The notes beneath the pieces were generated by a model, which was given only the letters and a program-made list of their open reading frames with translations, had not been told where the DNA came from and searched no databases. A DNA stretch of 36,574 nt, from positions 1-36,574 of the forward strand of contig CAZKRC010000005.1 of the NCBI GenBank assembly GCA_964555105.1, read 5' to 3'. The stretch comes from an uncultured Bifidobacterium sp. Lineage in GTDB: Bacteria > Fibrobacterota > Fibrobacteria > UBA11236. The translations under genes were made by a program, and so were the position numbers. This document shows positions 7,163 to 34,038 of the stretch, piece after piece; position 1 is the first letter of the stretch, and the number at the start of each line of letters is the position of its first letter.

Positions 7163-7771
7163 ATGTCTTCCGCAGTGTCTTCGTCCGCATTCCGGTCCGC
7201 TCTTCCGCCGTCATCTTCCGTTCTGATGCTTCCGGGTTACGGAGGCTCGGGACCGCAGCATTGGCAGACCTTGTGGGAGAAAGAGCATCAGCGCTTTCGT
7301 CGTGTCGAGGCGCGCGACTGGGACCACCCGGTGAGGGGAGAGTGGGTGGGCAACCTGGAGGCTGCCGTGGCTGCCGCGCAGGGTGACGGGCCCGACGTGG
7401 TTCTGGTGGCGCATAGTCTGGCGTGTCTGCAGGTGGCGCATTGGGCGGCCGTGACGCCCTTGACGCATGTGACGACGGTGAAGGGAGCGCTGCTCGTGGC
7501 GCCACCCGACCCCGAGAGCCCCGCGTTCCCGCCCGCCGCGGCGGGCTTCACCCCCCTGCCTCTGTCGCCCCTTCCTTTTCCCTCGATCCTGGTGGCCAGC
7601 ACCGATGACCCGTACGCCTCCACGGCGTTCAGCGAACAGTGCGCGCATGCCTGGGGTTCGCGCCTGGTGTTCATCGGCGCGGCGGGTCACATCAACGCCG
7701 CCAGCGGGGTGGGGGAGTGGGAGGAGGGCAAAGTTCTCTTGGGGGAGCTTTGCCTCTCAATTAAGAGTTAA
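7163..7771 (+). CDS. Alpha/beta serine hydrolase of the YdeN/RBBP9-like family
   Basis: LMLPGYGGSGPQHWQTLWE N-terminal box, nucleophile elbow VLVAHSLACL, then ASTDDPY and GAAGHIN (Ser-Asp-His order), about 200 aa. GGAG sits upstream of the ATG at 7163. Confidence 0.75.
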   Translation: MSSAVSSSAFRSALPPSSSVLMLPGYGGSGPQHWQTLWEKEHQRFRRVEARDWDHPVRGEWVGNLEAAVAAAQGDGPDVVLVAHSLACLQVAHWAAVTPLTHVTTVKGALLVAPPDPESPAFPPAAAGFTPLPLSPLPFPSILVASTDDPYASTAFSEQCAHAWGSRLVFIGAAGHINAASGVGEWEEGKVLLGELCLSIKS

Positions 7772-7808
7772 GAATTAAGAATGGGGAGTGGGGAGTGGGA
7801 GTGGGGAG
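7761..7808. repeat. Heptamer tandem arrays (TTAAGAR)x3 followed by (TGGGGAG)x4
   Basis: ttaagag ttaagaa ttaagaa at 7761-7781 overlaps the hydrolase stop codon at 7769-7771. tggggag tggggag tgggag tggggag at 7782-7808 gives four G-tracts with 3-nt loops, which fits the G-quadruplex consensus. Confidence 0.9.
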
Positions 7809-7865
7809 CGGAAAGGCACGAGGTCGCAGAAGGCGAACGCGTCATTAGGAATGGATCGCAAGGAA

Positions 7866-7905
7866 CATCACAGCATCACAACATCACAGCATCACAACAT
7901 CACAG
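7866..7905. repeat. Octamer tandem array (CATCACAR)x5
   Basis: catcacag catcacaa catcacag catcacaa catcacag, read directly from the sequence. Confidence 0.9.
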
Positions 7906-8015
7906 CAATAGAACGCAGGGAGGTGTGAATTGTCTGTGCGTTGTGTCGTAAGGTCCAAGGCACTTGAACAAGCAAGGCACCTCAATATCCCATAAAGCCA
8001 GCATTCAGTATCTGT

Positions 8016-8095
8016 CTTTACTGCTTTACTGCTTTACTGCTGTACTGCTGTACTGCTGCACTGCTGCACTGCTGCACTGCTTTACTGCTGTGACG
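8016..8095. repeat. Octamer tandem array (CTKYACTG)x10
   Basis: ctttactg x3, ctgtactg x2, ctgcactg x3, ctttactg, ctgtgacg. The array ends 16 nt before the ftsE stop codon. Confidence 0.9.
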
Positions 8096-8110
8096 CCGTA
8101 ACGTCTTGTC

Positions 8111-8824
8111 TCACGTCTCCGCGTGCTCTCCCGGCCCCGTATACGTGCCCGGGATGTCCGTCAAGACGCCGCGGTCGAGGCACAGGCGGCGCACGGGCAG
8201 GTTGCCGGTAAGCAGTTCGTCGTGCGTGGCCATCAGGACCGCCACGCCCGCGAGGTGGATGTCGTGGAAGATGCGCAGGATCTCGACGGAGGTCTCGGAG
8301 TCGAGGTTTCCGGTGGGCTCGTCGGCGAGCACGATCTCGGGATCGTTGGCCATGGCGCGGGCGATGGCGGCACGTTGCTGTTCTCCCCCCGAGAGTTCGT
8401 GGGGGAAACGGCGCGCCTTCGCCGAGAGCCGTACCATGGTGAGCACTTCGTACACGCGGTGCTTGACGCGGGCTTCGGGGACGTTGGCGGCACGCAGGGC
8501 CAGCGCGACGTTCTCGAACACGGTGCGGTCGGGCAGCAGCTTGAAGTCCTGGAACACGATGCCCAGGCGGCGGCGCAGTTTCTGGATGCGCCCGCGGGAA
8601 GGGCGCTTGCCGGAGCGGTACTCTTCGCCGTCTCCGAACGCGATGCCGACCTCTCCGGTATCGGGGGCCTCGTCCATGTAGATCAACCGCAGGATGGTGC
8701 TTTTGCCGGCGCCGCTCGGGCCGGTGAGCAAGACGAACTCCCCGGGGTCGATGGAGAACGACGCCTTGTCGAGGGCGAGCCATCCGCCGTTGTAGACCTT
8801 GGTCACCTGGTCGAACGTGATCAT
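8111..8824 (-). CDS. ftsE: Cell-division ABC transporter ATP-binding protein FtsE
   Basis: MITFDQVTKVYNGG..., Walker A GPSGAGKST, signature LSGGEQQR, Walker B VLADEPTGNLD, H-loop ATHD, 237 aa. The ATG overlaps the stop of the upstream methyltransferase (ATGA at 8821-8824). Confidence 0.85.
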   Translation of the reverse strand: MITFDQVTKVYNGGWLALDKASFSIDPGEFVLLTGPSGAGKSTILRLIYMDEAPDTGEVGIAFGDGEEYRSGKRPSRGRIQKLRRRLGIVFQDFKLLPDRTVFENVALALRAANVPEARVKHRVYEVLTMVRLSAKARRFPHELSGGEQQRAAIARAMANDPEIVLADEPTGNLDSETSVEILRIFHDIHLAGVAVLMATHDELLTGNLPVRRLCLDRGVLTDIPGTYTGPGEHAET

Positions 8825-9774: not shown

Positions 9775-11279
9775 TCGGGCTCTCCGCCGGACTCGGGGGT
9801 GTCGTCGGCACCGTCGGAGGCGTCCGGTGTGTCGACGGGGCGTGGTTCGACAGCCTCGCCGTCTTCGTTGGGGTCGATGCCGGTGCTTCCGGAGCCACCG
9901 GCAAAAAGCGCGAGGCGGTTGCCGATATGCATCTGCTCGCGCCAGGTCTTGATGAGGCCGGCGATGCGCTCTCCGATCAGCCACTCGCGCGTGTACTGGC
10001 TGATCACGGTGTAGTCCTCCTCCAGCGTGAGGCGTCGTTCGCGGACCTTGTGGTCGAGACGGAAGATGTGCCAGCTGTCGCCGATCAGGATGGGGCCGCT
10101 CACGGCGCCTTCCTGCAGCGTGTCGACCACGGATTTGTACACGCCCGCGAGCGAGTCGCGGGAGAACCAGCCGAGGTCGCCGCCGAGATCGCGCGTCTTG
10201 CGGTCGTCGGAGTGGGTGCGCGCCGCGTTGGTGAAGGCCGCCTGCGTCGTGAGGGTACGGCCGAGGGAGTCGAGCCAGGTGCGCGCGCGCGCGCTGTCGG
10301 CGGCGGCGGGGGTCACCCGGGTGAGGATGTGCGAGGTGCGGATCTCGTTGTCGCGCTTGCCGGTGACGCGAATGAGGTGGTAGCCGAAACGCGTGCGCAC
10401 CGGGCGGCGCGTGTAGTCGCCGATGTCGAGGGCGAAGGCCGCGCGCTCGTAGTCGGCGTCGAGCGTGCCGCGCTTGGTGTAGCCGAGGTCGCCGCCCTCG
10501 CGACCGGAATAGTCGTCGGAGTGCAGGCGCGCCAGTTCGGCGAAGGCTTCGCCTTCGGTGAGGCGGCGGACGAGGGAGAGGGACTTTTCACGCGCTTCCG
10601 TTTCGATGCCGGCGTCCGCCTTGACGCGCCATTGCAGGTGCGAGAGGCGCGCCACGTCGCGTTGCACGGGCAGGCTGTCCTGGTACTTGTCGAAGAACTG
10701 GCGCACCTGCAACTGCGAAGGCTGCGGGTCGCCCACGTATTTCATCTGGATGCGTTGACGCAGGACGTTCTCGCGCACCTGCTCGCCCAGGCGGGCCTTG
10801 AACTGTCCCAGCGACATGCCGGTGGCCTGGCGCAGCGCGGCTTCGAGCTGACGCTCGCCGCCCTGCTGTTGCGCCACGCGGGCGTACATGTCGGCCACGC
10901 GCGCTTCCACCTCGCGGTCGGAAACGTTCAGGGTCGTGTCCTGCCGCGCCTTCTCGAGCAGGACCTTGTCGTCCACGATGCGGTCGAGCGCTTCCTCGCG
11001 CTGCGCGGCGACGCTGAGGGACGCGAAGCCGGGGCGTTGCTGCTGCATGGCCACGCGCAGCTCATCGATTTCCGAGAGCAGGATGGGGCTGCCGTTGACC
11101 ACGGCCGCGATGCCGTCCACAGGGGTGCGCGCGTGCGCGGCCGTGGCCGTCAACCCGGAGACCGCCAGCACCGCCGCGACGGCCAGAAGACGCGCCGTCA
11201 ACGACGGGAAGGCCGTCGCCATCCCCCCCCGCTTCATGTCGGTGGGAGACGGGGACTTCAACGAAATGTTCTGATGCAT
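9771..11279 (-). CDS. surA: SurA-like periplasmic chaperone / peptidyl-prolyl isomerase with two parvulin domains
   Basis: Signal peptide ARLLAVAAVLAVSGLTATAAHA. SurA_N-like LDRIVDDKVLLEKARQD. Parvulin signatures FGYHLIRV and SWHIFRLD. Acidic C-terminal tail. The start may be the MKRGG Met at 11237. Confidence 0.75.
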   Translation of the reverse strand: MHQNISLKSPSPTDMKRGGMATAFPSLTARLLAVAAVLAVSGLTATAAHARTPVDGIAAVVNGSPILLSEIDELRVAMQQQRPGFASLSVAAQREEALDRIVDDKVLLEKARQDTTLNVSDREVEARVADMYARVAQQQGGERQLEAALRQATGMSLGQFKARLGEQVRENVLRQRIQMKYVGDPQPSQLQVRQFFDKYQDSLPVQRDVARLSHLQWRVKADAGIETEAREKSLSLVRRLTEGEAFAELARLHSDDYSGREGGDLGYTKRGTLDADYERAAFALDIGDYTRRPVRTRFGYHLIRVTGKRDNEIRTSHILTRVTPAAADSARARTWLDSLGRTLTTQAAFTNAARTHSDDRKTRDLGGDLGWFSRDSLAGVYKSVVDTLQEGAVSGPILIGDSWHIFRLDHKVRERRLTLEEDYTVISQYTREWLIGERIAGLIKTWREQMHIGNRLALFAGGSGSTGIDPNEDGEAVEPRPVDTPDASDGADDTPESGGEPE

Positions 11280-11282
11280 GGG

Positions 11283-12260
11283 TTACTCTCCCGGCGGCAG
11301 CCGTTCCTCATCCGAAACGGTGTCGTTCCCGGCGTCATCCCTCAGGGGCGGCAGGGTACCGTCCTGTCCGGGGATCTGGTCGATGTTGAGATTGATGGTC
11401 ACGCCTTCCTTGTACTGGCGGATCTTCGACTGCCGCATCTTCTCCTTGTGTTGCATGGAGAGGCGGGCGGAGATGGAGGCGCGGACTTCGGGGAAGGGGA
11501 AGGGGGTGCCGGCCTCGATGCGCTCGAGCAGGCGGACGAGGTAGACGCCGTCGGGGCAGCTCACGGGATGCGAGAGCCATCCCGGGCGTGCGTCCAGCAC
11601 GTCGTGCAGGCAGGTGGGCACTTCGGAGGTTTTGCGGAACAGCGGGTCGAGGAATTCCGGTGCGGAGTCCAGCGAGTTTTTTTCCGCCAGCGCGGCGAAG
11701 TTGTTGCCGCGCACCTTGTTGCGCACCGCGAGCGCGTCCTTGAGCGTCGCGAGGCGGATGTGCATGTAGCGGTATTCGGGCGCCTTGCGGAGAAAGTCGC
11801 TTTTGTTGTTTTCGTAGTAGCGCATCAACGCGCCTTCGTCGGGTTCGACCTCGCCGCCGACGCCGACCTCGCGCGCGAGGAACTCCTCGATGATCATGCG
11901 GCGCTGCAGGCGTTGCAGCTTGCGCTTCATCTGCGGTTCCTGGTCCAGCTTGCGACTCAACGCCTGCTGGTACACCGCTTCATCGTCGATCCAGCGCTGG
12001 ATCACGTTCAGGTATTGTTCGCGTGGCAGGACTTTTTCGTATTCGGCGGGATAGCTCTCGCGCAATTCGTCCAGCGTGAAGGATGCGTCGTTCACTTCGG
12101 CGAGCACGACCGCGTTGGTGTCCTTTTGCTGGCACGCGGTCAGGGCGAGGGTCGCGAGACCAAGGGCACCGACGGCGGCAAGGCGCGGGAAGACCCGAAA
12201 ACGGGGAAAATTGGGGGGATTCACCGCAGGAATATACGTAATTGGGGGTGTCGCCACCAT
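11283..12260 (-). CDS. PpiC/PrsA-type peptidyl-prolyl isomerase lipoprotein
   Basis: ATG at 12260 (MVATPP...). Lipobox LALTAC. Contains YQQALSRKLDQEPQMKRKLQRLQRRMIIEEFL and a degenerate parvulin-like region. The upstream 199 codons of the track ORF overlap mfd and are Arg/Pro-rich junk. Confidence 0.65.
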   Translation of the reverse strand: MVATPPITYIPAVNPPNFPRFRVFPRLAAVGALGLATLALTACQQKDTNAVVLAEVNDASFTLDELRESYPAEYEKVLPREQYLNVIQRWIDDEAVYQQALSRKLDQEPQMKRKLQRLQRRMIIEEFLAREVGVGGEVEPDEGALMRYYENNKSDFLRKAPEYRYMHIRLATLKDALAVRNKVRGNNFAALAEKNSLDSAPEFLDPLFRKTSEVPTCLHDVLDARPGWLSHPVSCPDGVYLVRLLERIEAGTPFPFPEVRASISARLSMQHKEKMRQSKIRQYKEGVTINLNIDQIPGQDGTLPPLRDDAGNDTVSDEERLPPGE

Positions 12261-12310
12261 CGCGGGCCCTATGTTCCAAGGTGGTTCCAGGGAGTGGTTC
12301 CCGGGCGGTT

Positions 12311-15300
12311 TCAGGGTGCCGCGCCGCCGGATGCGCCTCCGGCCCCGGTCATTCCCGTGAGGACCTCCGTGGCCATGCGGGTCAAGGCGATCGGGTCCCC
12401 CCGGCGCGGCGGGTTCAGCGTGACGCTGAACTGCAGGGGTTCTCCGGAGGCCGTGAGGAAACGATACGGGAGCTTGACGCGGGAGGCCATGAGCGTGAGG
12501 TCCTCGCGTGCGGGCAAGTGCTCGTCCGAGAACGTGAGGACGAGGAGGTTCTCGCGCACTTCGGTTTTCCGCACGCCCAGCGTGCGGGAGGCGATGCGGG
12601 CCTCGACCGTCTGCAACAGCATGGCGGCCTCCTCGGGGAGCGCGCCGAAGCGGTCCTCGAGTTCGGCCCGTATGTCGGCGACATGGGCGGGTTCGGTGAG
12701 GCGCGCGATTTTCTGGTACAGCATGGTGCGCTGGGCCGGATCCTCGACGTACTCCTCGGGAAGGAAGGCGTCCGCGGGGAATTCGATCTCGGGATTGAGC
12801 GGCGGGCGGACGGTGGCGCCCTGCATCTCGAGCGTGGCGTCGCGCACCATGCGGCAATAGGTTTCGAAACCCACGGCGGCGATATGGCCGCTTTGCTCGT
12901 GGCCGAGAAGGTTGCCGGCGCCCCGGATCTCCAGGTCGCGCATGGCGATCTGGAAGCCGCTGCCGAGCTCGGTGAACTTCTCCAGCGCGTACAGCTTGCG
13001 CCGTGCGTCATCGGAGAACTTGTTGGCGTCGGGAGCGATCAGCAGGCAGTAGGCCTGGGCGGCGGAACGGCCGACGCGTCCGCGCAGCTGGTAGAGTTGG
13101 CTGAGGCCGAACAGCTCGGCGCGGTGCACGATGAGCGTGTTCGCGTTCGAGATGTCGATGCCCGATTCGATGATGGAGGTGCTGACCAGGATGTCGAACT
13201 CGCGGTGTACGAAGGCGGACATGACCCGCTCCAGCGCGCCCTCCTCCATCTGGCCGTGGGCCACGCCGATGCGGGCCTGGGGCACGAGGCCCTGTACGCG
13301 TTCGGCGATCTCCTGGATGTCCTGCACGCGGTTGTGGACGAAGAAGATCTGGCCGCCGCGCTCCAGTTCGGCCTCAAGGGCGCCGCGGATGACCTCGGGG
13401 TCCCAGAACACCACGCGGGTCTCGATGGGAAGGCGGTTGCGCGGCGGCGTCGCGATCAGGGAGAGGTCGCGCGCGCCGAGCAGGGAGAAGTGCAGGGTGC
13501 GCGGGATGGGCGTGGCGCTGAGCGCCAGCACGTCGACTTCGGCGCGCAGGTCCTTGAGCTTTTCCTTTTGCTTCACGCCGAACTTCTGCTCTTCGTCCAC
13601 GATGAGCAGGCCGAGGTCCTTGAACTTCACGTCCCGGGAGAGCAGGCGGTGCGTGCCCACGAGGATGTCCACCTCGCCGCGTTCCAGCGCGGCGAGGGTT
13701 TCCTTCTGCTCCGCGGGCGTGCGGAAACGGTGCAGGGATTCGACGCGGATGGGCCAGCCGGAGAAGCGTTCGCTGACGGTCTCGTAATGCTGCGCCGCCA
13801 GGATGGTGGTGGGCGCCAGCAGGGCCACCTGTTTTTTGTCCATCAGCGCCTTGAAGGCGGCGCGCAGGGCCACTTCGGTTTTGCCGAAGCCGACGTCGCC
13901 GCAGACGAGGCGGTCCATGGGGCGCAGCGACTCCATGTCTCCCTTGGTCTCCGCGATGGCCTTGGCTTGGTCGGGAGTGAGGTCGTATTCGAAGGCCTCC
14001 TCGAACTCCGCCTGCAAGGGAGTGTCGGGGGAGAAGGCGAAGCCTTGCGCCACCGAGCGGCGGGCGTAGAGCTCGATGAGCTCGCGCACGAGCATGACGA
14101 TGGCCTTGCGCGTTTTCTCCTTGGCGTTCTCCCAGGCCTTGCCGCCCAGTTTGGAGAGGACGGGTACCTTGCCCTCTTCGCTCGAGAACTTCTCGAGTTT
14201 GGCGAGGTCGGTGACGGGCAAGGTGAGTTTGTCCTTGCCTTGGTAGTCGAGCAGGATGCAGTCCACTTCGTGACCGGCACGTCCTCCCACCGGCATGCGC
14301 CGGATGCCCGCGAAGCGGCCGATGCCGTACGTTTCGTGCACGACGAAGTCGCCACGCCGGAGCGCGTCGAAGTCGGGGATGGCAACACCGCCGCCCCGGA
14401 ACTTGCGCTTGCGGGTGCGCCGCGTGACGCGGTTGAAGAGCTGGTGGTCGGTGAGCAGGGCGAGACCTTGCGAACGGTCGATGAACCCGGAGGCCAAGGT
14501 GCCCACCAGCACGCCCTCGATGCCGTACTTGCGGTACGACTCCGCCTGTTTGCCCAAACGCTCCGCCTGTGCGGGGTTCGGACACAACAGCCAGGTGCGG
14601 ATGCCCGCCGCCGACAGCTCCTTGAAGCGCGGCTCGGCGTCGGCCAGGCCGACGCCGTCGCGCGTTTGTGCGTCGACGTCGAACAGCGCGCTGCCGGGTC
14701 CCTCGAACGCGAGGCGCCCGATGAGGAGGGTGCGCCGGGCCTCCAGCAGCGCGTGCACCTCCGTCGCCGCCAGGAACAGCTGCTCCGGTTCATTGACCAC
14801 GCGGCCTTGGGCGCGCGCTTCTTCGTATCCCGCCCGGGCGGCCACGCGGTTTTTCTCCAGGGCCTTCGCGAGACCGTCGGTGTCGCCCACCACGACGCGG
14901 GCCTCGTTGCCCAGAAAGTCGAGCAGGGAGTGGTCGAGCTTCTTGAAGAACGCCTTTTGCCAGTGGATGCCCGCGAGATCGCGCTTGCCCGTGAGGCGAT
15001 GAAGCTCGGCCTCATAGCCGGTCTCGCCTCCGAGCGCGTCGAACTGCTCGAGCAGGCCGGCCGCGATCTCATCCGGGGTGTAGCAGCATTCGTCCTGCGG
15101 CAGCAGGGCGACGGATTCCACGGCGCGCAGCGAGCGCTGCGAGAAAATGTCGAACTCGCGGATGGTTTCGATGACGTCGCCGTCCAGCACGATGCGGTAC
15201 GGGTTGTCGGCCATGAAAGGGTAGATGTCGAGGATCTCGCCGCGCACGCTGAAATCGCCGATGTCCTGCACGGCGGGCTCTTCGCGGAAGCCCAGTGAAC

Positions 15301-15793
15301 CCACGGCTTCGCGGAACGCCGCCGGGTTCAGGTCATCGCCCGCCCGCAGGGTGACGACTTCGCGATGAAGGCTTTGCGGGCTCTGAAAGCGTTCGAGAAA
15401 GGCGGACACCGTGCTGACCACCACGGCGCGACGTCCCTTGTACAGCGCTTCGAAGGCTTCCAGGCGGAGTTCGCGTACCTGTCCGAACGGCTCGCGCCAC
15501 TCGTAGGGCTTGAGGTCAAGCCCGGGGAAGCGGAGGACGGACTCTTCGCCGAGCCACGATTCGAGGTCCTCGGCCATGGCCTCGGCGTCCTTCGCGTCGG
15601 CCGCGAGGTACAGGACGGGTGCGGCGGCGTTCCGGAACTGCGTGGCCACCAGGGCCGACGCGGCCGACCCCGCGAGGCCGGCGACATGCACGGGTTTCCC
15701 GGGTGCGGGATTCAGGGCGATGAAGTCGGGAAAGGCGCGGAGGTCGAGAAGCTCCGAAAGCGGCGGGATGGCAGGGATGGACGGAGAGGACAT
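12311..15793 (-). CDS. mfd: Transcription-repair coupling factor Mfd
   Basis: 1160 aa. Helicase motifs CGDVGFGKTEVA, LLIVDEEQKFGV, LALSATPIPRTL, QLYQLRGRVGRS, plus a C-terminal TRCF domain. ATG at 15793. Confidence 0.95.
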   Translation of the reverse strand: MSSPSIPAIPPLSELLDLRAFPDFIALNPAPGKPVHVAGLAGSAASALVATQFRNAAAPVLYLAADAKDAEAMAEDLESWLGEESVLRFPGLDLKPYEWREPFGQVRELRLEAFEALYKGRRAVVVSTVSAFLERFQSPQSLHREVVTLRAGDDLNPAAFREAVGSLGFREEPAVQDIGDFSVRGEILDIYPFMADNPYRIVLDGDVIETIREFDIFSQRSLRAVESVALLPQDECCYTPDEIAAGLLEQFDALGGETGYEAELHRLTGKRDLAGIHWQKAFFKKLDHSLLDFLGNEARVVVGDTDGLAKALEKNRVAARAGYEEARAQGRVVNEPEQLFLAATEVHALLEARRTLLIGRLAFEGPGSALFDVDAQTRDGVGLADAEPRFKELSAAGIRTWLLCPNPAQAERLGKQAESYRKYGIEGVLVGTLASGFIDRSQGLALLTDHQLFNRVTRRTRKRKFRGGGVAIPDFDALRRGDFVVHETYGIGRFAGIRRMPVGGRAGHEVDCILLDYQGKDKLTLPVTDLAKLEKFSSEEGKVPVLSKLGGKAWENAKEKTRKAIVMLVRELIELYARRSVAQGFAFSPDTPLQAEFEEAFEYDLTPDQAKAIAETKGDMESLRPMDRLVCGDVGFGKTEVALRAAFKALMDKKQVALLAPTTILAAQHYETVSERFSGWPIRVESLHRFRTPAEQKETLAALERGEVDILVGTHRLLSRDVKFKDLGLLIVDEEQKFGVKQKEKLKDLRAEVDVLALSATPIPRTLHFSLLGARDLSLIATPPRNRLPIETRVVFWDPEVIRGALEAELERGGQIFFVHNRVQDIQEIAERVQGLVPQARIGVAHGQMEEGALERVMSAFVHREFDILVSTSIIESGIDISNANTLIVHRAELFGLSQLYQLRGRVGRSAAQAYCLLIAPDANKFSDDARRKLYALEKFTELGSGFQIAMRDLEIRGAGNLLGHEQSGHIAAVGFETYCRMVRDATLEMQGATVRPPLNPEIEFPADAFLPEEYVEDPAQRTMLYQKIARLTEPAHVADIRAELEDRFGALPEEAAMLLQTVEARIASRTLGVRKTEVRENLLVLTFSDEHLPAREDLTLMASRVKLPYRFLTASGEPLQFSVTLNPPRRGDPIALTRMATEVLTGMTGAGGASGGAAP

Positions 15794-15810
15794 GGGGGGG
15801 AAAGGTAGAG

Positions 15811-16021
15811 ATTTAAGAATTTGGATTTAAGAATTAAGAATGGGGAGCAGAAGGCACGGGCACGAGGTCGCCATAGGCGAACGAGTCCTGGGGAGTAAAG
15901 GGAAAGCGCGCTGCCCTTCTCCTCTGCCCATGAGGGCTTATGGAGGCAGTTACACACTTTGTTTTACAGACCTTCCCTCTTCCGCGTTCCTTGTGTTCAG
16001 TTCTTAATTCTTAACTCTTAA
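15811..16021. repeat. Composite intergenic repeat element bounded by inverted TTAAGAA-type heptamer arrays; its left module is homologous to 7768-7843
   Basis: 15827-15847 ttaagaattaagaatggggag is identical to 7768-7788. 15859-15887 ggcacgaggtcgcCATaggcgaacgAgtc matches 7815-7843 at 25/29 positions. 16001-16021 ttcttaattcttaactcttaa is the exact reverse complement of 7761-7781. A 14-bp perfect inverted repeat lies at 15827-15840 / 16001-16014. Confidence 0.85.
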
Positions 16022-16025
16022 TTCC

Positions 16026-17147
16026 TCATTCTTGATTGAACACCCCCGCGTAGTCCCCATACCCTTCCTTCTCCAGATCCTCCTTGGGAATGAAGCGCAG
16101 CGAGGCGGAATTGATGCAGTAGCGCAGGCCCGTGGGGCCGGGACCGTCGGGGAAGAGGTGACCCAGGTGCGAGTCCGCCTTGCCGCTGCGCACTTCGGTG
16201 CGCGTCATGCCATGCGAGGTGTCGGTTTTCTCGAGGACACGGGCTCCCGCCACGGGCTTCGTGAAGCTCGGCCATCCCGTGCCGCTGTTGAACTTGTCGC
16301 GAGAGCTGAACAACGGCTCACCGGAGATCACGTCGACATACAGGCCTTCGCGCTTGTTGTCCCAGTAGGCGTTGGCGAAGGGGCGCTCCGTGCCGTTGCG
16401 CCGCGTGATCTCGTATTGCTCGGGGCTGAGGCGCGCGCGCAGCGCGGCATCCGAAAGATTCGTGAGGTCGCACGCCTCGCGCGGGTCTTCGTCTTTGCCC
16501 GCGCGTGCGCTCGGGCTCGACGCCGGTTCCGTCAGGCCGTCGTTCGCGGGAGTGGGGGGCATGAGGGGTGCCGCGTCCTTGCCCCACACCCTGGCGATGA
16601 AGCCGGCGCGGCCCGAGCCGGTTTTGTACCGCTGGTAATGGCCCGGATTCAGCTGGCAGTATTTCTGGTGATAGTCCTCGGCGGGGAAAAAGCTGGTGAG
16701 CGGCTCCACCGGCACCACGATCCCGTCGCGGAACCGGCCCGAAGCCGCCAGACGGGCTTTCGATGCCTCCGCTTCTTGTTTCTGACCGTCATCATGATGG
16801 AGGATGGCCGGACGGTACTGGCTGCCACGATCCGCGAATTGCCCGTCCGCGTCGGTCGGGTCGATTTGCCGCCAGAAAATCTCCAGCAGGGTCGCATAGG
16901 AGACCGTGTGAGGATCGTAGGTGACCTGCACGGCTTCGGTATGTCCGGTCGCACCGGTGCCCACTTTCTCGTAGGTCGGCGCAGGGTCATGGCCGTTCGC
17001 GTAACCGGACACCACGCTGCTTACGCCCTCGATTTCGAGAAACGCGGCTTCAATGCACCAGAAACATCCCCCCGCGAAGGTGGCGATGGCCGTGGTTGAA
17101 GATGCCGACGCTGTCGGAAGGGGCGAAGGGGTTGAGGATTCTGTCAT
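16026..17147 (-). CDS. msrAB: Bifunctional methionine sulfoxide reductase MsrA/MsrB fusion
   Basis: MsrA active site GGCFWC near the N-terminus. C-terminal MsrB motifs GTGWPSF and RYCINS. Probable ATG at 17147 (MTESSTP) with AAGGAA upstream. The track ORF extends to 17252. Confidence 0.9.
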
Positions 17148-17422
17148 GGCTGGTTCCTTGGTGTTCTTTTTGAGCGTAAGGGGTAAGCGCGGGGGAAAGG
17201 GCGGGGCCAAGGCCGGCGCGGCGAAAGCCTGCGCGGCCAACAATGCCGCCATGATGAAGGTTCCGTCGGAAAAAACGGATGCGCCGTGGGGGCGCCGTAC
17301 GGGGCGGAAATCCGGCCCATGAAGGTCATGAAACCAATCTACACGATTGTGCCGACGGGGCGGAATGAGCCTCCGTTAAAGGGCCTGGAGGCGGGGAAAA
17401 GCCGTGCGCGCCGTACGCAGGG

Positions 17423-19345: not shown

Positions 19346-19684
19346 GGGACCGCCCGGCTGAGGGATGGTTTGCAGAGACTATGGCAATATATCGGCCTCC
19401 TCGCATAAAGAACGGGAAAAACGGGAGATTTTTTTTTGGGGGGTGAGGACGTTTTGTCCGCAGGGCGCTGCGACCGCAAGAGACCTTGGGGAACCTCGGG
19501 TGTGCGGTACGCTTCGGAAACGCGGTGCCGCAGCGGCGCATGACGACAGCATGAGACTCTAAAGGCGGTCGGACGGCTCCGGGCGGTATCGGCCGAGGCG
19601 ACGGCGGAGACGGCGGCGGCGACGGATTTCGACGGCGGGTGGCGGAAGAGGACGCGAAGGATCGGGGAGGAGGTCCCGAAATGA

Positions 19685-20968: not shown

Positions 20969-21000
20969 TGTGTTGCGGCGGCTTGCGGGCCGCGGCTGGT

Positions 21001-21029
21001 TGACCAATGACTAATGGACCAATGGGCTA
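21001..21029. repeat. Short heptamer-type tandem array TGACCAA TGACTAA TGGACCAA TGGGCTA
   Basis: Read directly from the sequence. The last unit contains the stop codon (cta, 21027-21029) of the minus-strand response regulator. Confidence 0.8.
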
Positions 21030-21728
21030 GTCGTCGAACCGGTAGCCCAGACCGGGCAGGTTCACGATCTTGCGGCCGAGTTCCGGGCCGAGTTTGCTGC
21101 GCAGCGATGAGATGTGAACCTTGACGGTGTGCGAATCGACGGGCGACGAATCCCCGTATCCCCACACCGTATGATAAAGATGGGTGGTGTATGCCACCAG
21201 GCCGCGCTTGCGGAGCAACATGTTCAACAGGTCGAATTCCTTGCGGGTCAAGGTCACCGGATTGCCGTTCACGTTCACTTTGCGTGAACGCAGGTCGACC
21301 ATCAGGCCTTCCGCCAGCAGGGCTTCGGGCGCGGCGTCCGTGGTGCCGTACCGCATGCCGAGGAGGGAAAGCCGCTTTTTCAGCAGCTCGGGATTTTCCG
21401 GCTTGACGATCACTTCATCCGCGCCCCGCTTGAACAGATCGAGTTGCGCCTCTTCCGTGGTGCCGGCGGACGCCAGCACCACGACGGGAATGACCGCCGT
21501 GTAAGGGCTGCTTTTCAGTGTTTCCAGCAGCAGTGAACCGTCGGAGGCGACGGCGTTCTGTTTGTCGGCGTCCAGTACGATGAACAGCGGCTGGCGAACC
21601 TTGGCCCTGGTGGGAGCATCGGCCGTGGATTCGGGGACATTGAGCTGGATGGACGCGGATTCCAGGCATTCCCGTGCCGCTTCCAGAAGTCCGGTGTCAC
21701 TGGAAACCATCATGATGACGCCGCCCAT
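21027..21728 (-). CDS. OmpR/PhoB-family response regulator (receiver plus winged-helix DNA-binding domain)
   Basis: C-terminal LTRKEFDLLNMLLRKRGLVAYTTHLYHTVWGYGDSSPVDSHTVKVHISSLRSKLG...LPGLGYRF. Receiver has LFIVLDAD (phospho-Asp), VVVLAS and VKP. Start chosen at MGGVIMMVSSD (21728). The track ORF runs to 21875, so the start is uncertain. Confidence 0.75.
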   Translation of the reverse strand: MGGVIMMVSSDTGLLEAARECLESASIQLNVPESTADAPTRAKVRQPLFIVLDADKQNAVASDGSLLLETLKSSPYTAVIPVVVLASAGTTEEAQLDLFKRGADEVIVKPENPELLKKRLSLLGMRYGTTDAAPEALLAEGLMVDLRSRKVNVNGNPVTLTRKEFDLLNMLLRKRGLVAYTTHLYHTVWGYGDSSPVDSHTVKVHISSLRSKLGPELGRKIVNLPGLGYRFDD

Positions 21729-22359
21729 CCCTTTATTGTCTTGCCGGTTCGCTTCCAAAGGAATTCCCCTCCTGAGATCCGGAACCTGGGTCCGGGGAGC
21801 GTTTGACGATGCGTCGACCGGTGCCGGTACACGGGAAGATCCGGAGTCAGTGGATAAAAGGTCGGACCCCGTCATGGGGCGATCCGGAATCGTACGTCAA
21901 ACGCCGTAAAATCAAGTCAAATTGTCTTCTTGAAAGATACACTTCTCCCTCTGCGGGGCCATCCGGAAAACGGGCGATAAAATGCGTTTCAGGCGCGTGT
22001 TACAAGATGTTTCACGGGGTGAACGGAGAACGAAGCTCTTTTTCGGGCTTAAAAGTCGGCGTTGAAAACGCGACGGTATACTATTCTCAAAAGTCGTATT
22101 GAAAAATGCCCCTCCAACACCCTGACCAGAGTCGTATGCGGGAGAAAGATCCCACAAAATGTTCCTGTCGCGGCCCGTGAGAGAAAATCAACACGATTCA
22201 TCAAACACTACCGGGGAGAACCGCGTGGTCCGAAGCTAACTTTGGGCCCGACTGCCCAGCACATGGGATTGAACGGCATCCCGCAACCTGCGAAGTGGGG
22301 AAGAGATGAAAAAATCCGGAGCTCAACATCCTGACAAGGCTCCCCTCAAGGGAGCCGGC

Positions 22360-24068: not shown

Positions 24069-24096
24069 CGCGGGCGCGGCATGGAGCGGAGGCCTC

Positions 24097-24180
24097 CTCC
24101 CGTTCCATGTCGCCTCTCCCGTTCCATGTCGCCTCTCCCGTTCCCGCGCCCCGTGCGTCCCGTTCCCGTCCCGTTTCCCG
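24097..24180. repeat. 19-bp direct repeat x2 followed by degenerate CCCGTT-type C-tract repeats
   Basis: ctcccgttccatgtcgcct occurs at 24097-24115 and 24116-24134. It is followed by ctcccgttcccgcgccccgtgcgtcccgttcccgtcccgtttccc, which has at least seven C3-4 tracts with short loops (G-quadruplex motif on the minus strand). Confidence 0.85.
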
Positions 24181-24197
24181 GGATTAATTCGTAATTC

Positions 24198-27549: not shown

Positions 27550-27630
27550 GGCCGGAAGCGTCGTCGCCTTCCATCGCTCCCGTCGCTCCCGTCGCATCCC
27601 CGGTGTTCCCTCCTCATGTATCTTTGATTC

Positions 27631-27978
27631 ATGTCTTCACGCTTGGTACGCGTCCCCGACGTCGCCTCCCTCAAACACGGTGAAACCCGCGTGTTCAGCT
27701 GGCCTTCGGAATACGGTGAGCTCGAAGGGTTCGTGATCCGGCACGGCGACAACCTGCGCGCGTACGAGAACAAGTGCAAGCACCTCCCCATCCCGCTTGA
27801 TTACGGGGACGGTGACTTCTGGTACGGGGCCATCGATCGCATCGTCTGCAAGACCCACGGCGCGAGCTACGATCCGGACACGGGTTATTGCGACGATGGC
27901 CCCTGCGAGGGAGCTTCCCTCACGCGTTTCGATATCGAGCGCGAAGGCGACGACGCGGTCATTCTGATACCGGGCTGA
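27631..27978 (+). CDS. Small Rieske [2Fe-2S] domain protein
   Basis: 115 aa with CKHLPIP (C-x-H) and CKTHGASYD (C-x-x-H) ligand boxes about 30 aa apart. ATG at 27631. Confidence 0.8.
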   Translation: MSSRLVRVPDVASLKHGETRVFSWPSEYGELEGFVIRHGDNLRAYENKCKHLPIPLDYGDGDFWYGAIDRIVCKTHGASYDPDTGYCDDGPCEGASLTRFDIEREGDDAVILIPG

Positions 27979-28028
27979 CCGGCCACACGTCGGGCCGCCG
28001 CCACCCCGTCGCACCGCGCGACCGTCGT

Positions 28029-28559
28029 TCAGGGGCTCGCGTACTTCTTCAGCTTGCGTTGCAGGCTTTGGCGGCGAAGCCCCAGCAGGCGCGCCGCCTG
28101 GCTCACGTTGCCGCCACACTGCGTCATGACGTATTCGATGTACTCGCGTTCGTTGCGCGCGAGGGTGGCGGCGCCGGCTTCGCGATCCTCTTCGGCCGAG
28201 GGGCGCGGCCCCAGATCCAGGGCCCACAGCAACCACGGCAGCGACACGGGCTTGGCGAGATAGTGGGCCGCGCCGAGTCGTCCCGCTTCCAGTGCGGTGG
28301 AATGGCTGCCGTACCCGGTCATCAGCACGGCGCGGCACATCGGATTGACCGCGCGCAGCGCGGCGAGCGCGTCGAGTCCGGTTTCTCCGCCCGCGCCCGC
28401 GAGCCGGAGGTCGAGTACGGCGGCGTCGAGCGCGCGCAGATCGGTGGTCGAGGCTTCGGACCACGAGGCGGCCGCGTGAACGTGATGACCGAGATCCGCA
28501 AGCTCGCGCGTCAACGTACGGCGCAGCGGCGCGTCGTCCTCCAGAATCAGAATCCTCAT
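28029..28559 (-). CDS. regA: RegA/PrrA/ActR-like response regulator (receiver plus Fis-type HTH)
   Basis: MRILILEDDAPLRRTL, AAVLDLRL (Asp), VLMTGYGS, YLAKP. C-terminal GNVSQAARLLGLRRQSLQRKLKKYASP, 176 aa. The ATG overlaps the kinase stop (ATGA at 28556-28559). Confidence 0.75.
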   Translation of the reverse strand: MRILILEDDAPLRRTLTRELADLGHHVHAAASWSEASTTDLRALDAAVLDLRLAGAGGETGLDALAALRAVNPMCRAVLMTGYGSHSTALEAGRLGAAHYLAKPVSLPWLLWALDLGPRPSAEEDREAGAATLARNEREYIEYVMTQCGGNVSQAARLLGLRRQSLQRKLKKYASP

Positions 28560-29890
28560 GATGCCTCCGTGTGCCGCGGCGCGCGCGGCAGGGTCAGTAC
28601 GGCGTCCGTGCCGCCGCCGTCGCGGGCGGAGAGCGCGAGCGAGCCCCCCAGCGATTCGGTGAGATGCAGCGCCGCGAACAACCCCAGGCCCCGGCCTGAA
28701 CCCTTGTCGCTGTTGAAGGGTGATCCGAGGGCCTGCAGCACCGCGGGCGTCACGCCCGAGCCACGGTCCGAGACGATGATCCGCAGGGCCTCCCGCCCTT
28801 TTTCGCGGGCGGCGGACAGCCCGACTTCGACGGTTCCGTGCGCGGGCGACGCCTCCTCGGCATTGCGCAGCAACGTCACCAGGATCTGCGCCAATCCCAC
28901 GGCGGGTGCCGTGACGTTGTGTCCCGGCACGACGCTCGCATCCGGCCGGATCGATGCCGGCCCGACCCATTCGCGCGCGATCTTGTGCAGCAACAGCGCG
29001 GGGTCTGCCGTCTGCAGCCCGAGTTCTTCGGGATCCCAGGGGGTACCGGCCATGGAACGCACGATGCGGTCGCAACGCGCCAGGCTTTCGCGCAACTCGT
29101 CCCACTCCTCGCCCCACTCATCACCCCACTCCTTACTTAAGGCGGGAGAGGCGTACGGCGCGCCTTTTCGCCGCAACCGGTCGGCCAACAGGCCCGCGGC
29201 GTTCAAGGGGCTGGCCAACTCGTGGCAAAAACCGGCCGCGACCGCTCCGGCCGCGCGCAGGCGATCCTGCTGCCGGATGCGCTCCTGCGCCTCGCGCCAA
29301 CGATCGCGATAATGACGGTTGAGGCGCGCCGCGAAAATCGAAAGGCCTGATACCGCGCCCGCGAGGGCCCACTCGTAGGCGAGGTTGGGGCCCAACGGCC
29401 CGATCCAGGTGTAGGCGTTGCCCAGGCTTTGCGTGCTTCCCGCCAACAACGTCAGGGACCCGAAGCCCAGCACCAGCGCGGCCAATGCCCCGCGCGGCGA
29501 CAGCACGATGCCCGCCAATCCGATCTGGAAATGAATCAGGGAATGAACCGGATTGGTCAATCCCCCCGACACGCTGAAGAGAATGGTCATGGCTGTGAGA
29601 TCGACGGCGATCTGCAGGAGCAGCAACGCCGGGCCCACGCGTAATCCCCGCTTGCGCCACGCCCCCGTCATCACGTTGAACGCCAACAGGCCGGCCAAGG
29701 CACCCAGATACCACGGGATGTCCGACGCGAACATCCAGCCGTACCGCAGCGCGGGATACAGCAGCGCCAGTTCGAACAGGATGTGCAGGAAGCGCAGGCG
29801 CACGATCAGCGAAAGGGCCCAGCGCGCCTGGTCCTCGCTCCCGTCGGGCAGGGCCGCCGCACGGAACAGCAGTTCACGGAAGCTCTTCAT
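28556..29890 (-). CDS. regB: RegB/PrrB/ActS-like membrane redox-sensing histidine kinase
   Basis: About six N-terminal TM segments. GGLTNPV (29546-29566) resembles the RegB quinone motif GGxxNPF. H-box FCHELASPLN. Cys flanked by Arg (SLARCDRIV). N/G boxes LLRNAEEAS, VSDRGSGV, GSGRGLGL. ATG at 29890 (MKSFREL); the track ORF starts at 29926. Confidence 0.7.
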   Translation of the reverse strand: MKSFRELLFRAAALPDGSEDQARWALSLIVRLRFLHILFELALLYPALRYGWMFASDIPWYLGALAGLLAFNVMTGAWRKRGLRVGPALLLLQIAVDLTAMTILFSVSGGLTNPVHSLIHFQIGLAGIVLSPRGALAALVLGFGSLTLLAGSTQSLGNAYTWIGPLGPNLAYEWALAGAVSGLSIFAARLNRHYRDRWREAQERIRQQDRLRAAGAVAAGFCHELASPLNAAGLLADRLRRKGAPYASPALSKEWGDEWGEEWDELRESLARCDRIVRSMAGTPWDPEELGLQTADPALLLHKIAREWVGPASIRPDASVVPGHNVTAPAVGLAQILVTLLRNAEEASPAHGTVEVGLSAAREKGREALRIIVSDRGSGVTPAVLQALGSPFNSDKGSGRGLGLFAALHLTESLGGSLALSARDGGGTDAVLTLPRAPRHTEAS

Positions 29891-29968
29891 CGCACGATAA
29901 AGGTAGGAAGCCGTCCGAAGCCGCACGCGTGGTGGCTACACTCCTTCCGGCCAAGTAGATTACTGCCC

Positions 29969-31048: not shown

Positions 31049-31169
31049 AACTCGTTGCCTTTGAGCTTCCCGGGCAGGGGAAAAGCCGGGGCGCATCCGG
31101 CGGAAACGGGCGGGCCCGGTCGCGTTTGGGTGTGGGGACGCGGCGTCCCGTCCACGCTCCCGACGAAAT

Positions 31170-31197
31170 TTGTCAAAAACCCAATAGATACTAGATT
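31170..31197 (+). promoter_or_regulatory. Sigma70-like promoter candidate upstream of the transaldolase-family gene
   Basis: TTGTCA (31170-31175), 16-nt spacer, TAGATT (31192-31197), in an AT-rich patch about 50 nt upstream of the ATG at 31250. Motif evidence only. Confidence 0.3.
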
Positions 31198-31249
31198 GAT
31201 TCGGACACACAGAAAAAGAAGTATCACCCATTCGGTTATGGAGAGCCCC

Positions 31250-32164
31250 ATGTTTCAGCCCATCCCCAATAGTGCCGCCATGCTCGCCCGTCGCGAAAAA
31301 ATGCCGGTCATCAACGTCACCAAAAAAGAAAACACGATCGAACATCCGGCCGCCAAAGGCCCGCGCATTTTCTGCGACTCGGCCGTCAAGGCGGACATCG
31401 AGCCCCTGCTCAAGGCCGGTCTGATCCACGGCATCACCACGAATCCCACGCTGCTGAAAAAGGCGGGCGCGAGGTCGTGGCAGGAAGCCAAGGACATCAT
31501 GAAGGATCTGTGCGCCATGCTGGATCCGTTTCCCGTATCGCTTGAACTGACCGAACTGACGGAAGAGAAAATGGTCGAGCAGGCGTCCGAACTCGGTGCG
31601 CTGGGCAAGAACGCCGTGATCAAGGTTCCGATGGGCGGTTACGCCGCCGTCGTCGACGGCGGGGATCCGTTCACCGGACTCAAGGTCGTCCGTCGCCTCT
31701 GGGAAAAGGGCATCAAGACCAACGTCACTTTGATCTTCAACACGACCCAGGCCGTCTGGGCCGCCAATGCCGGCGCCACCTACATCTCGCCGTTCCTGGG
31801 GCGCATTCCCGACTACCTCGGCAAGCACGATGACGCGAAGCGTCCTTCGGGCAACAGCCTGTACTGGCTGGGCGAAGGCGATGCGAAGACGTCCAACTCG
31901 GAATACGTCGCGTCCGGCGGTGAGCGTCGCGATGCGGGCGCCCGCCTGATTTTCGAGATCGCCCACGTGTACGCCAACTATGGCATCACCACCGAAATCC
32001 TCGCGGCCAGCATTCGCAACCCGGTGCAGGTCACCGAGTGTCTGCTCGCGGGCGCGGACATCCTCACGGTTCCGGCGAACGTGCTCAGCACGGTTGCCGA
32101 TCATCCATTGAGCGATTCGGGCATGGTGGGCTTCCTCGAGGACTCCAAGGCGTTCAGCGGCTAA
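31250..32164 (+). CDS. tal: Transaldolase / fructose-6-phosphate aldolase family protein (long variant)
   Basis: RIFCDSAVKADIEPLLKAGLIHGITTNPTLL, Schiff-base Lys context AVIKVPMG, TNVTLIFNTTQAVWAANAGATYISPFLGRI. GGAGAG lies upstream of the ATG at 31250 (alternative ATG at 31238). There is an extra ~60-aa insertion relative to the ~220-aa Fsa/TalC type. Confidence 0.8.
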   Translation: MFQPIPNSAAMLARREKMPVINVTKKENTIEHPAAKGPRIFCDSAVKADIEPLLKAGLIHGITTNPTLLKKAGARSWQEAKDIMKDLCAMLDPFPVSLELTELTEEKMVEQASELGALGKNAVIKVPMGGYAAVVDGGDPFTGLKVVRRLWEKGIKTNVTLIFNTTQAVWAANAGATYISPFLGRIPDYLGKHDDAKRPSGNSLYWLGEGDAKTSNSEYVASGGERRDAGARLIFEIAHVYANYGITTEILAASIRNPVQVTECLLAGADILTVPANVLSTVADHPLSDSGMVGFLEDSKAFSG

Positions 32165-32188
32165 GCGTAGCTCGTGTCGAACAAGAAG

Positions 32189-32216
32189 GCGCTCCTGCAA
32201 AGGGGCGCTTTTTTTT
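32189..32216 (+). terminator. Rho-independent terminator of the transaldolase-family gene
   Basis: GCGCTCCT-GCAA-AGGGGCGC forms an 8-bp stem (one G-U pair) with a GCAA tetraloop, followed by T8 at 32209-32216. Confidence 0.85.
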
Positions 32217-32230
32217 GTGGGGACAAGTGA

Positions 32231-32307
32231 AATGCTCAATGCTCAATGCTCAATGCTCAGTGCTCATTGTTCATCGCTCATCGCTCATCGTTCATTGCTC
32301 ATTGAGC
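32231..32307. repeat. Heptamer tandem array x11 (consensus AWYGYTC)
   Basis: aatgctc x4, agtgctc, attgttc, atcgctc x2, atcgttc, attgctc, attgagc. Contiguous with no spacers, located between the terminator and the bfr-like gene. Confidence 0.9.
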
Positions 32308-33950: not shown

Positions 33951-33980
33951 CGGCGGGTCGCATCGCTTTTTCGGTCTTGT

Positions 33981-34023: not shown

Positions 34024-34038
34024 ATAAGGCTGCGGGGG

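Follow-up and report, generated by a model that had tools for sequence, protein, structure and literature searches.

Cyanobacteria have been known since 1990 to carry intergenic arrays of tandemly repeated heptamers, and Xanthomonas, Burkholderia, Beggiatoaceae and some Bacteroidetes were added to the list later. Similar arrays occur in the metagenome contig CAZKRC010000005.1, which was analysed over its entire 36,574 bp (the window) and has a GC content of about 64% along most of its length. They extend to a new lineage a class that is already known, the short tandemly repeated repetitive (STRR) sequences or long simple sequence repeats (LSSR). The host group is uncultured, has a GC content of about 61-66% and probably belongs to the Fibrobacterota, its nearest named relatives being metagenome-assembled genomes (MAGs) of Fibrobacteria; literature searches returned no account of such arrays from bacteria resembling the Fibrobacterota. 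The explanation that we favour, with a probability of roughly 0.6, is that the arrays are STRR/LSSR-type intergenic short tandem repeats, mostly of heptamers, that they are a lineage-wide trait, and that they act, or are tolerated, as structure-forming spacer elements at gene 3' ends. An earlier reading of the same DNA, the first-pass annotation, had listed many of the arrays without recognizing this class and without the two main regularities, an inverted-pair hairpin architecture and the use of species-specific units at orthologous spacers.

The arrays of the window are like the STRR sequences of filamentous cyanobacteria (Nostoc, Anabaena and Calothrix) in having tandem 7-nt intergenic units, several families per genome and hairpins at 3' ends. 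They are unlike them in that the host is a heterotrophic uncultured bacterium of about 61-66% GC and in that the units differ between close species. TGACCAA, one of the units of the window, is what we take to be the complement of STRR2 (TTGGTCA), and TGGGGAG, another, is presumably one mismatch away from STRR1. In Nostoc, STRR heptamers fold into hairpins near the 3' ends of genes, and effects on the stability of transcripts, on termination or on translational coupling are suspected (PMC2670836).

In Xanthomonas and Nostoc, quadruplex-forming GGGNATC and GGGGA(C/T)T repeats are overrepresented in non-coding DNA, within about 50 bp of the end of an open reading frame (ORF), and are underrepresented between divergent ORFs. 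Their position is conserved while their sequence varies with the species, four units are favoured, inverted repeats of them can form stem-loops, and the Xanthomonas repeats are transcribed (Rehm 2015, PMC4692102). The arrays of the window's lineage are likewise found near ORF ends and are scarce in divergent spacers (1/21 vs 18/47), and the TGGGGAG array of the window resembles the GGGGA(C/T)T type. Unlike the GGGNATC type, however, only three arrays of the window are rich in G- or C-tracts, while most units are mixed or AT-rich and are not capable of forming a G-quadruplex (G4).

TAACTGA repeats are found in Beggiatoaceae, Cyanobacteria and Bacteroidetes, where their distribution is patchy, they are mixed with other heptamer arrays and strains differ by indels in 7-nt steps (MacGregor 2015, PMC4679880). 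The BOGUAY TAACTGA repeats are direct, with one indirect repeat reported, lie just upstream of start codons and have a single dominant unit (PMC4679880), whereas the window's lineage has many units, its arrays touch gene 3' ends and stop codons, and inverted pairs are frequent. TAACTGA-type arrays are also present in loci L027 and L097. Across phyla, the classical units (TAACTGA, TTGGTCA and CCCCAGT-like) accounted for about 5 of about 60 arrays inspected by hand against a rough chance estimate of about 7%, from which no conclusion can be drawn. As summarised in a later paper, LSSR with units of 5-11 nt are most commonly heptamers, are longer than chance, are excluded from coding sequence when their units are out of frame and occur sporadically across phyla (Mrazek 2007 per PMC4679880); the class is purely descriptive, and the window's lineage lies outside the genomes surveyed for it.

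Repetitive extragenic palindromic (REP) sequences and the hairpins formed by their doublets (REPINs) are genome-specific, intergenic, imperfect palindromes, which occur as inverted doublets, form hairpins and lie at gene 3' ends; mRNA stabilisation and termination have been proposed as their roles, and mobility as a possibility (PMC3116915; PMC3733652). The window's lineage shares with them intergenic inverted doublets that are able to form hairpins (13/39 arrays), but in place of a fixed REP of 20-40 nt its arms consist of tandem heptamers in arrays whose length varies. Marks that define REPINs are near-identical units in tens to hundreds of copies per genome, a GTAG or CGTC tetranucleotide conserved at one end of the palindrome, and a gene for a REP-associated tyrosine transposase (RAYT, a Y1 HUH transposase) with the repeats at its flanks. 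Neither the window nor any of the five sister loci contains a RAYT gene. Two further classes were considered and rejected. [quoted passage not shown] Nor are they phase-variable contingency simple sequence repeats, since they lie downstream of the stop codons of housekeeping and oxidative-stress genes and avoid divergent promoter spacers, with the array at 32233-32304, before the Dps gene, as a possible exception.

Density and position of the arrays

Arrays were detected with Tandem Repeats Finder (TRF) over the whole contig, in tiers with scores of at least 30, 50 and 60. Every array listed in the first-pass annotation was recovered, with ends that agree within a few bases. The three tiers contain 35, 11 and 5 arrays, where 9.3, 0.34 and 0.05 are expected from 100 dinucleotide-preserving shuffles of the window. 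Heptamer arrays of at least 3 copies number 1.6 per 10 kb in the window and 3.3 in the sister locus L082, against 0.24 in a background of 80 unrelated bacterial loci (1.18 Mb) that were taken from a contig search with MsrAB (at most 57% identity, other phyla). The density, which had been called unusual for a bacterial chromosome, therefore exceeds both composition-matched shuffles and unrelated bacterial loci.

Chance matches, or artefacts of metagenome assembly, have to be considered for the weakest arrays, such as 21001-21024 with a score of 32, which fall within the range of the shuffles (about nine arrays with a score of at least 30 per window). For the arrays taken as a set this explanation is refuted, by the strong surplus over shuffles and unrelated genomes, by identical sequence from independent assemblies and samples, and by the precise placement of the arrays in spacers across six species; its probability is negligible. 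In Logan contigs from the source soil run the array spacers are the same, with zero differences, and the same arrays are present in low-depth contigs from compost and fungus-associated metagenomes. The sequences of the sister loci are identical across JGI, ENA and NCBI assemblies.

The MsrAB sequence of the window has no exact entry on record. The nearest homologues of MsrAB have 69-85% identity and come from uncultured bacteria, the sole organism name attached to them being 'Fibrobacteria bacterium'. Five contigs that encode such homologues have strong synteny with the window. Together, the six syntenic loci, namely the window, L082 (= L081, L083), L084, L099 (= L100), L101 (= L102) and L103, comprise 137 kb, of which 10.4% is intergenic; coverage is about 20 kb in each of the five relatives and 20-37 kb per genome overall. 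All five sister loci (5/5) have spacer arrays, and the unit sequences are species-specific. Over these stretches the relatives thus show the many arrays and own units expected of a genome-wide trait, and the excess depth over arrays in the source run gives it support. L082 has AACTCAG, TCATCAA/TTGATGA and CTGGGTA; L099 has AGTCGGA/GACTACC; L101 has GTACTCG and AACAACC; L103 has GTACTCG; and L084 has TTCCGCAT, CGTCCGTCAT and others.

Across the six loci, 32 arrays have a period that cannot be divided by three, and 27 of them are intergenic, in the 10.4% of the DNA that lies between genes (binomial p = 3e-22), which confirms the intergenic placement noted before. The period is 7 or 14 in 22-23 of 27-28 intergenic arrays. 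Since arrays are carried by 15/35 co-directional and 3/12 convergent spacers and by only 1/21 divergent spacers, they go with gene 3' ends and shun spacers that contain promoters only. The difference between spacers with a 3' end (18/47) and divergent spacers (1/21) is significant (Fisher p = 0.0037) and makes the link to 3' ends raised by the first-pass annotation plausible. Orthologous spacers without arrays also exist: the spacer between the hydrolase and ABC genes in L084 is 9 bp long, and the response-regulator (RR) spacer in L082 is 19 bp long. On reading the sequences, the first repeat unit overlaps or adjoins the stop codon in many arrays. Several genes take their stop codon and final codons from the arrays. 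Short-read assemblies break at them as well, so annotators of such MAGs should expect them.

Inverted pairs and hairpins

A reverse-complement partner lies within 300 nt in 13 of 39 arrays, counted in the lineage and in the contigs from a 21-mer search; the controls gave 0 for reversed units and 1 for direct partners. A spacer with such an inverted partner can therefore fold into a long hairpin with tandem-heptamer arms. The msrAB-mfd spacer of the window (15794-16045, minus strand) is an example, in which one long hairpin extends over the whole spacer and has two inverted arrays at its base, 15809-15847 and 16001-16037, with arms of 32 nt that are 81% complementary. Its minimum free energy (MFE) is -79.3 kcal/mol, with z = -3.4 relative to 200 shuffles and z = -3.5 in a repeat run; at narrower bounds z is only -1.6. 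The same spacer is flanked by inverted arrays in three species, with AATTAAG in the window, AACTCAG in L082 and, more weakly, AGTCGGA/GACTACC in L099.

Further hairpins of this type are found in L082 at 11200-11385 (z = -5.4 / -5.75), 5340-5460 (z = -5.9) and 18960-19115 (z = -5.2), in L101 at 15665-15790 (z = -5.7) and 20025-20135 (z = -7.9), and in L103 at 14535-14635 (z = -3.6). The sequence GTAG that precedes the arms in L099, L101 and L082 is a Lys-stop context (AAG TAG), and it is absent from the cassette of the window.

Inverted heptamer-array hairpins were also seen in contigs unrelated to the lineage, at 140-315, 3180-3325 and 5970-6080 of L097, at 1040-1110 of L089 and at 1559-1710 of L037, so this architecture is not restricted to the lineage of the window. 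Among them, the hairpin at 3180-3325 of L097, a contig of 69% GC, has z = -15.8 and a near-perfect stem of about 60 bp that is made of nested arrays.

The anatomy of the arrays and the comparison between species make a structure-forming role in 3' spacers, similar to that of REP sequences, likely. The arrays would persist because, at the 3' ends of transcripts and between cistrons, they act as structure-forming elements of the spacer or are tolerated as such; there they could be REP-like mRNA stabilisers, terminators or insulators. What would matter in such a role is the match of one arm to the other and not the sequence of the arms, and tandem arms would still pair after a slip by one unit.

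Several results weigh against this role. Only the window and L082 have a strong msrAB-mfd hairpin, which is weak in L099 (z = -1.7) and absent from L084 (z = +1.75) and L103. Spacers with arrays reach z of -2.5 or lower in 7 of 18 cases and spacers without arrays in 8 of 34, which is not a significant difference (Mann-Whitney p = 0.07, Fisher p = 0.34); the arrays add no structure beyond the general level of this lineage's spacers. The sense strand folds better in 4 cases, the antisense strand in 4, and the two are equal in 1, and a test for RNA-level selection by sense and antisense MFE and G-U pairs gave no asymmetry. With equal folding of the two strands there is therefore no strand-specific signature at the RNA level. 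The window arrays at 7759-8091, 21001, 24092, 27562 and 32233 have no inverted partner and fold no better than shuffles; for the TGCTCAT array at 32233, z is -1.1, which is not significant. Finally, no U-tract follows the 3' arm of the cassette hairpins, and for this reason the idea that they are intrinsic (Rho-independent) terminators was rejected.

Classical terminators are found elsewhere in the window, at about 32196-32222 and at 33976-34028. Since many array-free spacers of the six loci contain conventional terminator-like hairpins, the arrays may be one of two ways to build a hairpin at a 3' end. A scan of the window for consensus promoters and terminators was uninformative, as it returned fewer terminator-like sites than shuffles and missed an obvious terminator. 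Rfam searches of the two main spacers at E <= 1 and of the whole window at the gathering threshold found nothing besides tRNA-Lys.

Some arrays could form a structure of another kind. The window contains 11 G4 motifs, about threefold more than shuffles (3.3 +/- 1.8), and three of them coincide with arrays: the motif 7783-7806 lies on the plus strand, the motifs 24159-24179 and 27579-27610 lie on the minus strand. An earlier proposal of G4 structures is thus borne out at the level of motifs for these three arrays, and the G- or C-rich arrays (TGGGGAG, CCCGT-type and CGTCGCTCC) could form G4 structures instead of hairpins; the remaining arrays lack the required four or more G-tracts of at least three G at heptamer spacing. 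The G4 enrichment is one reason to consider that the arrays in general are G4/i-motif elements or binding sites for a nucleoid or regulatory protein, for example the XRE protein with a Lys/Ala-rich tail that is encoded nearby. The number of units in the TGGGGAG array is exactly four, as favoured in Xanthomonas and Nostoc (PMC4692102), heptamer repeats of Nostoc affect binding at the recF and recO promoters and translation (bioRxiv 10.1101/2022.06.06.494920), and the symmetry of sense and antisense folding would fit an element that acts as DNA. However, the units vary between sister species even though the candidate XRE gene is conserved in synteny, the majority of the arrays are not G-rich, and the divergent promoter spacers, where regulators usually have their sites, are avoided, so that sites of this kind are a very improbable explanation of the arrays.

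Turnover of units and copying of cassettes

A contig from a compost metagenome matches positions 7684-7943 with a single mismatch (1 in 252 nt) but lacks exactly one 8-nt CATCACAG unit. This one-unit difference between near-identical strains supports slippage, the repeat-generating process put forward in the first-pass annotation, and arrays would lengthen and shorten by slipped-strand mispairing. The remaining arrays are the same in the few contigs of close strains that span them.

Larger changes are seen between L101 and L103, whose DNA is 87-89% identical. Their orthologous GTACTCG cassettes differ in the number and order of the units, and at one and the same spacer L101 has a GGTTGTT/AACAACC hairpin while L103 has a GTACTCG/CGAGTAC hairpin, both arms and the loop having been swapped together. 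In our preferred reading, entire array-loop-array cassettes would occasionally be copied or replaced in addition to slippage. The six syntenic species, with different units at orthologous spacers and, in some of them, a hairpin that is kept while its sequence turns over, are a useful comparative series, in which selection on structure as against sequence, and unit-wise copying of cassettes, can be tested directly. At 11180-12133 of L101 a methyltransferase gene stands between msrAB and mfd, as it does in L101/L102 only; the heptamer cassette is absent there, and the spacer behind the inserted gene is a GC-rich palindrome.

The arrays could also be functionless by-products of slippage, if replication in this lineage tends to slip by heptamers; they would arise anywhere and survive only where they are harmless, in 3' spacers. 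Such neutrality agrees with the unit-sized indel between strains, the complete turnover of units between species and the array-free orthologous spacers of L084 and L082, as well as with the absence of extra structure in array spacers and of any asymmetry between sense and antisense. The preference for heptamers would be accounted for by Mrazek's idea of a polymerase footprint, as it is related in PMC4679880. Slippage alone, however, does not produce a second array of the same unit in inverted orientation (13 arrays have a reverse-complement partner, vs 0-1 in the controls), cannot switch both arms jointly to another heptamer in genomes that are 88% identical, and leaves unexplained the non-repeat sequence that copies have in common. 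We therefore regard neutrality as a somewhat unlikely explanation.

The common non-repeat sequence is clearest in the window itself. After the AATTAAG and GGGGAG arrays, a non-repetitive tail follows at 7809-7850 (plus strand; GGCACGAGGTCGC..AGGCGAACG.GTC), and a second copy lies at 15848-15894 (plus strand), where 15859-15894 is 81% identical to the first. The composites 7759-7850 and 15809-15894 thus have a tail of about 40 nt in common. A third copy of the tail, with AATTAAG arrays at its flanks, is present on another contig of equal depth in the source run. This composite is a low-copy element, with about three copies in the source run, and its tail was not found in the sister loci. In L082, sequence common to the two AACTCAG cassettes extends past the arrays. 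Units are reused within a genome: AACTCAG occurs at 5354 and 11221/11308 of L082, three L103 spacers have GTACTCG, and the genome of the window has AATTAAG at no fewer than three loci, with two to four copies per family seen in the 20-37 kb of each genome.

These genome-specific families, reused at several spacers, would be expected if the array-loop-inverted-array cassettes were small non-autonomous elements, similar to REPINs or to miniature inverted-repeat transposable elements (MITEs), that are copied by a host enzyme such as a RAYT/IS200-type HUH transposase, their tandem arms being secondary. The non-repeat sequence common to copies and the replacement of a whole cassette at one orthologous site speak for such elements, as does the likeness to REPINs of intergenic, hairpin-forming cassettes at 3' ends (PMC3116915). 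Depth in the source run also fits, as it is 35-800 over the arrays and 10 at baseline (TACTGCTG array at 8019-8091: 805 vs 10), but other organisms may contribute part of it. No transposase gene was found in the lineage's 137 kb, however, the ends of the cassettes lack target-site duplications, the composite with the tail exists in only about three copies in the source run, and the loops of cassettes of the same family are mostly dissimilar. Mobility of this kind is accordingly an unlikely origin.

A bolder version is that the cassettes are a distinct hairpin element, mobile or actively generated, in which each genome has its own heptamer 'dialect' and REPIN/RAYT-like or template-switching copying takes place at gene 3' ends. 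If true, it would explain the joint change of both arms in genomes that are 88% identical, the recurrence of units at several spacers, the hairpins in unrelated phyla (L097, L037 and L089) and the (AATTAAG)n-AATGGGGAG junction in contigs of 45-69% GC; we consider it quite unlikely.

The exact 21-mer TTAAGAATTAAGAATGGGGAG, in which an AATTAAG array is followed by GGGGAG (7768-7788 and 15827-15847 of the window), was found in 14 metagenome contigs of 45-69% GC (L085-L098). To judge from the record names alone, these contigs come from very different habitats, and several of the hits are orthologous to each other. The 21-mer often begins at a stop codon and adjoins other heptamer arrays. Its recurrence may reflect a common function, horizontal transfer or mere coincidence among a very large number of such arrays. 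Three simpler rules for these sequences were tried and rejected. GGGGAG is not a fixed end of AATTAAG arrays, as it is missing from two independently sampled arrays (L098 1670 and L087 4260). The cassettes are not universal stop cassettes either: AATTAAG/TTCTTAA has TAA on both strands, but AACTCAG, GTACTCG, AGTCGGA, CTGGGTA and TACTGCTG have no stop in the sense frames. A small ORF that runs from the ATG in AAGAATGGGGAG over the conserved tail was dismissed because its two copies have only about 11 residues in common and the short peptides from the other 12 contigs are unrelated.

Arrays and genes of the window

At least 8 different units, mostly of 7 or 8 nt, are present in the window, and only the AATTAAG arrays recur there. 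The arrays are therefore not the single window-wide repeat family that had been described. As TRF reports them on the plus strand, the first is AATTAAG x3.4 at 7759-7782, which begins within the final codons of the gene for Ser_hydrolase (its stop codon is TAA at 7769-7771). It is followed by TGGGGAG x4 at 7782-7808, whose four G-tracts form the G4-capable motif 7783-7806, by CATCACAG x5.2 at 7864-7907, which can alternatively be read as a 16-mer x2.8 with 100% matches, and by TACTGCTG x9.1 at 8019-8091, which ends 20 nt short of the stop codon of the convergent ABC-ATPase gene (8111-8824, minus strand).

The two arms of the msrAB-mfd hairpin are AGAATTA x4.7 followed by GGGGAG at 15809-15847 (repeat 15809-15841), which is the 3' arm when the minus strand is read, and its inverted partner TTCTTAA x5.3 at 16001-16037, 160 nt away, which overlaps the last three codons and the stop codon (16026-16028) of msrAB. 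TGACCAA x3.3 at 21001-21024 is weak (score 32) and on its own is not significant; it lies between convergent genes, ends 2 nt before the stop codon of a response regulator (21027-21029) and is the same in one compost strain. A 19-mer x2.7 with 97% matches at 24092-24144 is followed by short CCCGT-type repeats at 24156-24180, the plus strand being C-rich and the minus strand containing the G4 motif 24159-24179. The 9-mer CGTCGCTCC x4.1 at 27562-27600 lies between the MqnA-like and Rieske genes, coincides with the minus-strand G4 motif 27579-27610, and is identical in the X5 strain.

The longest heptamer array, TGCTCAT x10.3 at 32233-32304, terminates in the short inverted unit TGCTCATTGAGCA. 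Since it is flanked by the classical terminator at about 32196-32222 and by the start codon of the Dps/ferritin gene (32341), it occupies a promoter or 5' untranslated region position, unlike the remaining arrays. A change in the number of its units could alter the expression of dps. Further weak arrays are present in other spacers, at 5894-5930, 6537-6586, 6958-6988, 12281-12305, 17281-17306 and 19582-19625.

Three stop codons lie in arrays or at their edges, as had been pointed out earlier: those of the hydrolase (7769-7771), msrAB (16026-16028) and the OmpR-type regulator (21027-21029). The hydrolase has a C-terminus about 4 residues longer (SIKS*) than its orthologues, extending into the AATTAAG array, and the last three codons of msrAB fall in degenerate repeat units. 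The first-pass annotation had taken these and two longer repeats as leakage of the arrays into coding sequence. This stands for no more than the stop codon and the one to four codons before it, but not for the longer repeats in the histidine kinase and the Lys/Ala tail. The period-12 repeat at 29096-29133 (minus strand), which had been read as a TGGGGAG core in the histidine kinase, encodes EWGD-EWGE-EWDE in the linker of the kinase; the orthologues have DLGEEWSEL, and the repeat is a lineage-specific expansion by in-frame duplication of an ancestral GEEW. The period-9/18 repeat at 5444-5506, the supposed array of an H1-like tail, is also in frame and codes for the ordinary Lys/Ala-rich (K-A-T/A) tail of the XRE protein.

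The gene order of the window was obtained from scans of its proteins with Pfam profiles. A Type III restriction-modification pair comes first, with the res helicase/endonuclease at 178-2910 and the N6/N4 methylase at 2929-4845. Its GC content of 52-57%, against about 65% elsewhere, suggests that this block was acquired recently; the block is not present in the syntenic sister loci. The XRE-type helix-turn-helix (HTH) protein (5017-5556, plus strand) follows, whose Pro/Lys/Ala-rich C-terminal tail KATKATKATKAAKATKAAKAGK resembles the tails of histone H1 or AlgP. The tail is probably lineage-specific, since the syntenic HTH_3 gene in L099 encodes only 119 residues.

Next in order are an AhpC-type peroxiredoxin, Ser_hydrolase (7163-7771, plus strand), the ABC ATPase (8111-8824, minus strand), a methyltransferase, two SurA/rotamase proteins, Mfd (12311-15793, minus strand), MsrAB (16026-17252, minus strand), a 640-residue protein, tRNA-Lys and an outer-membrane-like protein. 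They are followed by the OmpR-type regulator (21027-21875, minus strand), AhpC, NDH-2, a DsbH-like thioredoxin, MqnA and Rieske, and then by a response regulator with a histidine kinase, two cytochrome c peroxidases, transaldolase, Dps/ferritin and PepSY. The region 5841-36172 is a conserved oxidative-stress gene island, syntenic in six species, whose members include two AhpC/peroxiredoxins, MsrAB, NDH-2, the DsbH-like thioredoxin, two di-haem cytochrome c peroxidases, Dps/ferritin and Mfd.

The response regulator that accompanies the histidine kinase (receiver and Fis-type HTH; 28029-28559, minus strand) has a 4-nt overlap with the stop codon of the kinase. It sits inside a longer mechanical ORF, 28029-29117, and its counterpart in L082 is at 1421-1966. 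A small conserved ORF, MTSTHTHSHTHSHTPERPLYERVLKFLVVGGFTLLLLYLKALAAILKLGIKAVKNMPVGKKTDT, of 64 residues at 6638-6832 (minus strand) has a His/Thr-rich N-terminus and one hydrophobic helix, and belongs to no Pfam family. By sequence it has a clear orthologue at 20243-20440 of L084, and genes of 56-63 residues, matched by position, are called at the syntenic place in L099, L101 and L103. The product of this ORF may bind metal.

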